From NCBI GenBank assembly GCA_965221695.1, contig OZ244905.1:256001-320000 (forward strand): a stretch of 64,000 bases of DNA. The letters run 5' to 3'. Source of the stretch: Gammaproteobacteria bacterium (GTDB taxonomy: Bacteria > Pseudomonadota > Gammaproteobacteria > Eutrophobiales > Eutrophobiaceae). The position numbers were made by a program, and so were the translations under genes. The notes under the pieces were generated by a model. That model worked only from the letters and a program-made list of their open reading frames with translations, searched no databases and was not told the DNA's origin. This document shows positions 29,565 through 29,667 of the stretch, piece by piece (the stretch's first letter is position 1; each line of letters begins with the position of its first letter).

Positions 29565-29667
29565 TGGTGTGCCCAGGACGGGGATCGAACCCGTAAGGCA
29601 TGTAGGTATTTCTACAGAGGCCGGGGGAGTGGCAATCCCCTGTGTTTACCGTTTTCACCACCTGGGC
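29565..29667 (-). tRNA. Atypical tRNA-like gene: tRNA-Leu-type body with Gly anticodon (GCC), 29-nt variable region, 3' end A-CA-CCA
   Basis: GCCCAGG/CCTGGGC acceptor; GTG-AAAACGGTAAA-CAC D arm; GGGGA-TTGCCAC-TCCCC anticodon arm; ACGGG-TTCGATC-CCCGT T arm. Structure is clear; function and expression are not. Confidence 0.7.

Follow-up and report, generated by a model that had tools for sequence, protein, structure and literature searches.

What does a gene do that combines the body of a leucine transfer RNA (tRNA) with the anticodon of a glycine tRNA and an oversized variable arm? The question is raised by positions 29565-29667, minus strand, of a 64,000-nucleotide (nt) stretch of DNA, hereafter the window, which covers positions 256,001 to 320,000 of contig OZ244905.1 from a Gammaproteobacteria bacterium of the family Eutrophobiaceae (assembly GCA_965221695.1). 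Based on an alignment of 34 distinct copies we conclude that this tRNA-like gene is, judged from its sequence, a paralogue of tRNA-Leu(UAA) with an anticodon fixed as G-Y-C. The pattern of its substitutions indicates that the family is under purifying and compensatory selection and is a working gene module, not a relic. The reading that we prefer, to which we give a probability of roughly 0.4, is that the module would make an activator-induced tRNA-like RNA that is kept in check by an antisense RNA and acts on GGY and GAY codons.

The tRNA-like gene, its family and its identity elements

Each of the cloverleaf features listed in the preliminary description of this locus was found on the minus strand between 29565 and 29667, and a complete class II cloverleaf is formed at 29570-29667. 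In the window copy, the 7-bp acceptor stem (GCCCAGG/CCTGGGC, with G1 at 29667 and C72 at 29571) encloses a D arm with a 3-bp stem and an 11-nt loop (GTG-AAAACGGTAAA-CAC), an anticodon arm GGGGA-TTGCCAC-TCCCC with GCC at 29633-29631, a variable region with the stems GGC/GCC and TGTAG/CTACA, and a T arm ACGGG-TTCGATC-CCCGT with a 5-bp stem. A73 at 29570 is followed by CA-CCA at 29569-29565. The general tRNA model of Rfam, RF00005, gave 52.6 bits on 29570-29667(-) against a gathering score of 29 and was the sole Rfam match to the element.

The closest real tRNA is tRNA-Leu(UAA), which in the window genome (G000; 3.54 Mb, 55% GC, one contig) scored 66.6 bits with R1, a covariance model built from the 34-copy alignment. 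The element is almost identical to the tRNA-Leu(UAA) of G000 in its acceptor stem, D arm and position 26, as the likeness noted in the preliminary description had suggested, and throughout its 5' half, as far as the anticodon stem, it has the same sequence as ordinary metagenome tRNA-Leu(UAA), for example L166 among the matches listed. The departures from tRNA-Leu(UAA) are the anticodon loop, which has changed from CUUAAAA to YUGYCAH, the variable arm, which has grown from about 13 to 29 nt, and the pair 49-65.

The anticodon itself showed a narrow range of variation. All 34 copies have G34 and C36; at position 35, 18 of them have C (GCC, glycine) and 16 have U (GUC, aspartate). None of the 34 has a leucine anticodon (NAG or YAA), as a bacterial tRNA-Leu would; the leucine anticodon or random loop for which relatives were to be checked according to the preliminary description is thus absent, every copy being GCC or GUC. 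On a tree of 35 copies, built with the loop masked, position 35 requires at least 9-11 changes, the same as shuffled labels give. All of these changes are transitions, whereas the neighbouring loop of the variable arm varies freely. Both anticodon types occur in 6 of the 7 genomes with at least two full copies, the exception being G015 with GCC only, and changes in the body do not follow the anticodon type.

Standard pairs fill 96.9% of the pair cells over the 34 copies, and five pairs vary on both sides (26 cells). The compensatory stem changes in relatives that had been proposed as a check were found at 5-68 (A-U 21, G-C 12), 6-67 (G-C 25, A-U 9) and 31-39 (A-U 31, G-C 3). None of 500 shuffles reached the covariation score, and slid controls dropped to 34-51% paired. 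The invariant core consists of U8, A13-A15, G18G19, A20a-A22, U47-U48, U54U55C56 and A58, and variation is seen at positions 16/17, 59/60, 32 (C/U), 35 (C/U), 38 (A/C/U) and in the variable-arm loop. The stems of the variable arm are conserved, and its loop of 6-7 nt is hypervariable, with 24 sequences in the 34 copies and the top column entropy of the element. The orthologues of G000 and its closest relative, G008, differ by 1 mismatch in the 98-nt tRNA-like part versus 4 in the 29-nt antisense promoter described below.

An explanation of the locus as a decaying tRNA-Leu pseudogene, or of its anticodon as an assembly artefact, would be in keeping with the missing ARAGORN call, the oversized variable arm and the displaced CCA. 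It is, however, contradicted by the recurrence of the same architecture and G-Y-C anticodon in 34 copies from 13 genomes, by the compensatory changes and by the copies on metagenome contigs, and on this sequence evidence we regard it as scarcely credible. The earlier judgement that the locus does not represent simple decay is borne out by the selection seen across the family.

As for its distribution, a BLAST search with the element gave matches in 14 of 41 related genomes, every one of them in the genus of the window. R1 found 34 places with 143-170 bits in 13 of the 23 genomes of this genus of uncultured Gammaproteobacteria; the 35 places mentioned below include a 5'-truncated copy in G004. 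Below the family came a G001 variant (82.8 bits), the truncated G004 copy (76.7 bits) and then real tRNA-Leu genes. Order-wide, among 126 genomes, true members were confined to this one genus, and R1 matches of 72-75 bits outside it were rejected, as these are ordinary tRNA-Leu(UAA) genes that belong to Gly(GCC)-Cys-Leu(UAA) operons. When one genome per species was scanned with an exact pattern, 21 stretches came up, 19 labelled as uncultured Gammaproteobacteria and two on short contigs binned otherwise. G000 has three copies, namely the window copy and a tandem pair between nadA and yebC-ruvCAB, G008 has five and G003 has ten inside 10 kb. The G003 cluster (L031, G003:C1:1143500-1157500) has its ten copies on one strand, interspersed with fragments of RTX genes and small coiled-coil open reading frames (ORFs), and also holds a Gp49/HTH pair, which is toxin-antitoxin-like, at 8553-9168.

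In metagenomes, at least three family copies (one on L154, two on L177) were present among the 81 matches listed for a pattern of the 5' half. Most of the others listed were ordinary tRNA-Leu(UAA) genes, in some of which the sequence is interrupted past the anticodon, and a few were other tRNA-like sequences (L117, L121, L130, L140, L173). In L099, L106, L124, L142, L148, L149, L160, L161, L171 and L172 the tRNA-Leu(UAA) sequence is left right after the anticodon, which resembles, and may represent, the known group I intron of tRNA-Leu(UAA). A search of sequencing runs gave three runs with 0.37-0.62 of the sampled words and many with 0.07-0.09, from which we draw no claim on habitat or expression.

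A Leu-type class II tRNA of a second kind, with the anticodon CGC, was observed at L069 1546-1631 (G001:C12, plus strand) and at L117 932-1019 (minus strand). ARAGORN names both 'tRNA-Ala(cgc)', with lengths of 86 and 88 nt. The G001 copy, which is the 82.8-bit variant, has the same upstream A-run and hairpin as the family and a downstream antisense TTGATA-17-TATAAT. No RTX-like ORF was found in either of these two loci.

To which amino acid such an RNA would belong can be judged from its identity elements. In PMC9976931, leucine identity in E. coli is described as residing in A73, A15-U48, G18G19, A20a and the tertiary pairs that join the D loop to the T loop, independent of the anticodon and the variable arm, and G73 is given as a major aspartate determinant. 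The full E. coli leucine set is kept in the family, with A73 in 33 of the 34 copies and the other elements invariant. The glycine discriminator is U73. With their A73 and 29-nt arm the copies differ from tRNA-Gly and tRNA-Asp, which have a short variable loop and U73 or G73, and only the anticodon loop matches these tRNAs: CUGUCAC is the loop of G000's own tRNA-Asp, and UUGCCAC differs from the tRNA-Gly(GCC) loop UUGCCAA at position 38 only. The 3' tails of the 34 copies read A-CCA in 14, A-N-CCA in 7 and A-NN-CCA in 11, and 2 have no CCA. N73-CCA is encoded by all 13 real G000 tRNAs that were compared, unlike the A-CA-CCA of the window copy.

These loops could be those of genuine extra tRNA-Gly and tRNA-Asp isoacceptors, charged through the anticodon and serving the Gly and Asp demand of RTX genes. 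The tRNA set of G000 is normal, with 44 genes including Gly GCC/UCC/CCC, Asp GUC and five Leu genes, and it has one gene each for tRNA-Gly(GCC) and tRNA-Asp, which is in favour of such a role; the invariant G10, the C38 in 13 of the 16 GUC copies, and the RTX link and codon counts given below also agree with it. We nevertheless consider it improbable, as the discriminator is A and not U (Gly) or G (Asp), the body takes no account of the anticodon type, and CCA is displaced in about half of the copies. In addition, the 29-nt arm should clash with class II synthetases, which face the variable-loop side of the tRNA.

As the leucine identity is intact and the body is independent of the anticodon, the RNA would be either leucylated or an unchargeable competitor. 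A displaced CCA, as in the window copy, makes the unchargeable competitor likelier than leucylation for such copies, and for the window copy we lean towards non-productive competition. Leucyl-tRNA synthetase (LeuRS) over the family cut-off was found once per genome, GlyQ once in 22 of 23 genomes, and aspartyl-tRNA synthetase (AspRS) was single where whole, with two in G008, split or partial matches in G011 as well as G021 and, in G006, none above the cut-off. The second AspRS-like ORF of G008 (G008:C4:941662-943407; 641 bits, over the cut-off) occurs in that genome only and may be a paralogue or contamination. The preliminary description had proposed a mistranslating tRNA (Leu at Gly codons) or a tRNA mimic. 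Of this, the absence of decay, the Leu-like body and the identity elements hold up, but simple mistranslation is disfavoured by a direct CCA in only 14 of 34 copies and by the lack of an extra synthetase.

Facing promoters and the two predicted RNAs

The tRNA-like gene is enclosed by promoter elements on both strands. The coordinates of all features of the window copy are given in Table 1; genome-wide motif and ORF-coverage counts refer to G000 only.

Table 1. Features of the family copy in the window, numbered from the first nucleotide of the window.
Feature	Position	Strand	Basis
tRNA-like gene, G1 to A73	29570..29667	-	sequence; RF00005 52.6 bits; model R1 157.2 bits; pair counts
Anticodon GCC in loop UUGCCAC	29631..29633	-	sequence; GCC or GUC in other copies
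Variable arm, 29 nt: C-GGC-CTC-TGTAG-AAATAC-CTACA-T-GCC-TT	29595..29623	-	sequence
3' trailer CACCA; CCA 2 nt away from A73	29565..29569	-	sequence
Antisense promoter TTGACA-17-GATAAT, 11/12 consensus matches	29521..29549	+	promoter scan; 35/35 copies
Predicted antisense RNA, ~150 nt, complement of the whole tRNA-like gene plus terminator	29556..29704	+	both ends inferred
Linker, GC-rich hairpin (stem 29673-29698), A/T run	29668..29704	both	terminator scan, fold energies
Predicted sense promoter: -35 TTGTCG (29740-29735), -10 CAGAAT (29717-29712), predicted start ~29705	29712..29740	-	aligned conserved -10
CRP-type palindrome TGTGAGTTTTAGCACA (read on the - strand, one mismatch)	29759..29774		motif search

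On the antisense side, all 35 copies have TTGACA, a spacing of 17 nt and a TAnnnT-type -10 despite diverged spacers, the -10 forms being GATAAT (24), GATACT (6), CATAAT (3), AATAAT (1) and GACAAT (1). Exact TTGACA-N17-GATAAT sites number five in G000, three of them at family copies. On the same strand, an 11-pair stem followed by T7 has the form of an intrinsic terminator. In the three copies scanned the terminator was called on the antisense strand only, and the antisense promoter was found again in both further copies. The hairpin, which in G000 occurs at the three family copies only, has a fold energy of -21.6 kcal/mol on the plus strand versus -15.6 on the minus strand, where it would form a 5' leader hairpin followed by UUAUUCU. 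The minimum free energy (MFE) structure of the antisense RNA is a mirrored cloverleaf plus terminator (z = -3.7).

Two further roles for the plus strand were discarded. T-box-like cis control by the antisense RNA was dropped because nothing is constant downstream of its terminator. The plus-strand ORFs that cover the element (29473-29718 and 29505-29687) were discounted by reasoning alone, since indels of 1-4 nt between copies break their frames.

On the sense side, the extended alignment revealed a conserved block upstream of the hairpin, composed of a T-rich stretch, a palindrome TGTGA-N6-TCACA and a -10 element. The candidate promoter TTGTCG-17-CAGAAT (29740-29712) of the preliminary description aligns with this conserved -10 behind the palindrome and may well be the sense promoter of the family. 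If at most one mismatch is allowed, 30 of the 35 copies have the palindrome; it is missing in three inner copies of tandem arrays and in two others, and in one copy it is displaced by an insertion. The -10 starts 21 nt past the palindrome in G005, G011, one of the two G020 copies and both G004 copies, and 40-41 nt past it in the others, a 19-20 nt indel separating the two spacings. In the window, the centre of the palindrome lies about 61.5 nt upstream of the predicted sense start.

CRP-type activators, with the consensus TGTGA-N6-TCACA, act from a centre at -41.5 (class II) or about -61 (class I). With respect to the predicted starts the family palindromes are centred at -41.5 or at about -60.5 to -61.5, which suggests the class II and class I geometry of a CRP/FNR-type promoter, and the weakness of the sense -35 is what would be expected of an activator-dependent promoter. 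The predicted sense start at ~29705 is the first base past the antisense terminator, and the two RNAs, as predicted, overlap along the entire antisense RNA. Exact palindromes occur 9 times in G000 versus 2.6 expected; one of the nine (genome coordinate 265792) was seen elsewhere in the window, at 9792-9807.

We used wobble pairs to tell on which strand the fold is selected, as Watson-Crick covariation is blind to strand. The tRNA part contains 14 cells that are G.U on the sense strand, most of them common to several copies or species, with sites at 11-25 (3 copies), 29-43 (3) and 48-69 (6). Cells that are A.C on the sense strand number 7 at six pairs, five of these pairs being affected in one copy each and one in two. 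In the upstream hairpin, mismatches on the sense strand are G.U on the antisense strand in three lineages (the window copy together with the two copies nearest to it, one copy from G014, and the copy from G022). We take this to mean that the fold of the tRNA part is selected on the sense strand and that of the hairpin on the antisense strand.

This division bears on the possibility, doubtful in our view, that the antisense RNA (plus strand, ~150 nt) is the sole functional product, a structured small RNA mirroring a tRNA, and that the sense promoter only lowers its level. A near-consensus promoter in 35 of 35 copies and a strong terminator called on the antisense strand alone are what such a product would need, and every unit of the tandem arrays has this promoter and terminator without a sense promoter. 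The clean mirrored cloverleaf, a hairpin that is 6 kcal/mol more stable on the antisense strand and whose wobble pairs suit that strand, and the 10 cases in which the unit lies just downstream of an RTX gene in the same direction fit equally. However, conserved and variable positions are exactly those that a tRNA tertiary fold and anticodon loop on the sense strand predict, and the wobble pairs of the tRNA part that are shared by several species suit the sense strand. An antisense product alone would also leave the conserved activator-type sense promoter unexplained, and no small-RNA family of Rfam matched.

Genomic neighbourhood and linkage to RTX genes

In the window the element is flanked by ORFs for a HisZ-like protein, adenylosuccinate synthetase, an RNase R-type RNB protein and a SpoU methylase. 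Conservation at this purA-rnr locus had been expected and was seen in the closest relative G008 only; G014, G004, G003 and G012 keep purA, tRNA-Leu(CAG) and rnr without the element. Both positions occupied in G000 are common to G008 only. Target-site duplications were not definable at purA-rnr because the intergenic sequences have diverged too far.

Comparison of 14 flanking loci from 10 carrier genomes by ORF clustering gave a sole recurrent neighbour, large RTX proteins (PF00353). The clusters present in at least five genomes were RTX proteins, frames overlapping RTX ORFs or the element, and small ORFs including a coiled-coil type. An RTX ORF lies within ~1.4 kb of 15 of the 35 places, in 10 of the 13 carrier genomes, and three arrangements were observed. 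In the convergent arrangement (10 cases) an RTX gene, usually of 1100-1220 amino acids (aa), ends on the opposite strand, and the order is RTX end, 25-400 nt, antisense promoter, anti-tRNA and terminator; in 9 of the 10, the RTX gene has a conserved 3' untranslated region (UTR) and a terminator of its own behind it. Another arrangement, seen in 5 cases, places the sense promoter 0.55-1.4 kb upstream of a same-strand RTX ORF, and in one case the RTX ORF is upstream of the sense promoter.

The composition of these neighbours corresponds to the anticodons of the family. Six neighbouring RTX ORFs contain 16.6-19.3% Gly and 14.0-16.4% Asp, and GGC and GGT make up 83-93% of their Gly codons, so that GCC and GUC, the only anticodons of the family, match about one third of their codons. 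The 8 copies of G000 and G008 have no RTX neighbour and yet keep all features, which argues for action in trans.

RTX-repeat genes are expanded genus-wide, with ~100 or more repeat matches in all but 7 of the 23 genomes (range 17-181), and G005, G004 and others have 8 to 12 or more RTX paralogues of ~1200 aa. At one locus (L218 5973-10599, G014:C1) an RTX gene at 7060-10296 is placed between two inverted family copies, which looks like a composite unit.

Such an arrangement, together with the lack of synteny beyond the closest relative, the tandem and clustered copies, the 5'-truncated copy and the fragments, raises the question of a cis-acting or selfish module without a decoding role, be it a promoter/terminator repeat, a processing or insulating signal that travels with RTX genes, or a recombination target, in which Gly and Asp anticodons would be coincidental. 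The conserved RTX 3' UTR beside 9 of the 10 convergent copies suggests co-duplication, and the anticodon arm and variable-arm hairpin could be taken as short inverted repeats about a variable spacer. We consider this explanation unlikely. No integrase, transposase or recombinase was common to the islands in the 14 loci of 10 carriers; the family pattern gave 0 matches in viral contigs and none in phages, and plasmids yielded no more than two matches of 52 nt, both in Proteus records and extending over 20% of the query. Moreover, a module of this kind would not be expected to show purifying and compensatory selection on an RNA fold, nor an invariant G34 and C36 with position 35 restricted to C or U over at least 9 changes.

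Downstream of the tRNA-like gene, the tRNA-Leu(CAG) gene has its own promoter, TTGACA-17-TAAAGT at 29454-29482 (-), which is conserved in G014 and G003. Sense read-through out of the tRNA-like gene would enter the promoter and gene region of this tRNA-Leu(CAG).

Proposed action and comparison with known systems

The activator-induced, antisense-checked RNA that we prefer would come from a module of three parts. The first is the L-shaped class II paralogue of tRNA-Leu(UAA) with its enlarged variable arm and G-Y-C anticodon, the second a sense promoter that would depend on an activator at the CRP/FNR-type palindrome, and the third a strong, presumably constitutive promoter on the opposite strand, giving an RNA of ~150 nt that is complementary to the whole tRNA-like RNA and would end at the hairpin. 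From this anatomy we infer transcription, antisense control and action on the ribosome as follows. The antisense RNA would limit the amount of the tRNA-like RNA, either because the two form a duplex or because transcription from the two sides collides. Once the activator is on, transcripts of the sense strand would pass the leader hairpin and be cut to the tRNA-like RNA, which would then act on the ribosome at GGY and GAY codons and hit RTX messages hardest.

Several observations weigh against this proposal. ARAGORN, from which a Leu isotype with a Gly anticodon had been hoped for, gave no call at 29570-29667, and its one gene in the window is tRNA-Leu(CAG) at 29329-29415(-). The MFE structure of the sense strand is not a cloverleaf, whereas that of the antisense strand is the mirrored one. 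Of the 34 copies, 18 have a CCA displaced by 1-2 nt and 2 lack it altogether, and no carrier-specific LeuRS, AspRS or GlyQ paralogue was found in the 23 genomes. The sense RNA would open with the complement of the terminator, a hairpin followed by 4-7 U in 7-8 nt, so that read-through would be needed, and inner copies of tandem arrays have the antisense promoter only. G000 encodes two Crp/Fnr-family proteins (L095 997-1725 and L096 1444-2295), which favours the proposal, but neither reaches the CRP equivalog cut-off, the best score being 56 bits against 266. RTX genes, including ~1200-aa paralogues, occur in all 23 genomes, 10 of which are without the family, and the family is thus dispensable for RTX expression; no correlation between RTX presence and family presence was found in these genomes. 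RTX-like ORFs make up 1% of G000, though possibly more of other genomes. As RTX genes are abundant and the RTX 3' UTR is shared in the commonest arrangement, part of the adjacency may be due to co-duplication.

A more specific version of the proposal, a 'guarded tRNA', would be a leucine-accepting or unchargeable RNA that reads GGY and GAY, is restrained by its antisense RNA as in a type I toxin-antitoxin system, is released by a CRP/FNR-type signal and corrupts or stalls translation of the neighbouring RTX messages and of the proteome as a whole. We regard this as speculative and rather unlikely.

Natural tRNAs with a mismatch of body and anticodon are rare and bear on the fixity of the genetic code. 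If the RNA described here decodes, it would introduce Gly/Asp-to-Leu ambiguity in a regulated way or serve as a codon-specific brake; if the antisense RNA alone works, it would be a new small-RNA family made from an inverted tRNA. The family is missed by ARAGORN and probably by standard annotation in general, and it offers a compact system that can be tested in the laboratory.

The known systems nearest to the family are as follows. Nev-tRNAs of nematodes are charged with leucine only and decode GGG as Leu in vitro (PMC3333845). Like them (Hamashima et al. 2012, PMC3333845), the family is tRNA-Leu-derived and class II with a non-Leu, non-Ser anticodon, Gly included. Its body is nev-tRNA-like as an analogue only, nev-tRNAs being defined as nematode-specific: the Gammaproteobacteria family is bacterial and restricted to one genus, has GCC/GUC instead of CCC/UAU, and is set apart by the 29-nt arm, the activator-type promoter, the overlapping antisense gene and the RTX link.

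Bacterial allo-tRNAs share with the family a long variable arm and a mismatch of anticodon and identity. They often lie near toxin-antitoxin genes, as the Gp49/HTH pair of the G003 cluster recalls, and some perhaps act outside translation (Mukai et al. 2017, PMC5389517). Unlike allo-tRNAs, which have an 8/4 or 9/3 branch and serine identity (PMC5389517), the family has a 7/5 acceptor/T branch, as found in the window copy, and leucine identity elements. The tRNAProX/ProRSx pair of Streptomyces and relatives (PMC10404621) is likewise a natural bacterial tRNA family, and tRNAProX has been proposed to mistranslate on purpose; it has its own synthetase paralogue, whereas the Leu-type family has no carrier-specific one. 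The tRNAOther pseudo-tRNA of Bacillus cereus (PMC3399842) is similarly tRNA-like, stands outside ordinary translation and has a regulatory effect. Its body is different and it is a single copy, and the available part of its description mentions no antisense partner or codon-family link.

Full-text searches of the literature gave nothing on this family, on an antisense-guarded tRNA or on an RTX-linked tRNA variant, although supplements may list other bacterial class II oddities. The combination of a Leu-type body with Gly/Asp anticodons, both kept within genomes through repeated C/U switching at position 35, an activator-type promoter, an antisense gene and RTX linkage was not found described in these searches. 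In their layout, type I toxin-antitoxin and plasmid copy-control pairs come close, with convergent promoters, a constitutive antisense RNA overlapping a regulated sense RNA, and a shared hairpin. There the sense product is the mRNA of a toxic peptide or a replication primer, and here it would be a tRNA-like RNA; if the guarded tRNA is true, it would be the first bacterial antisense pair with a tRNA as its regulated, potentially toxic partner, and also the first case of a tRNA variant that matches the composition of a gene family next to it.

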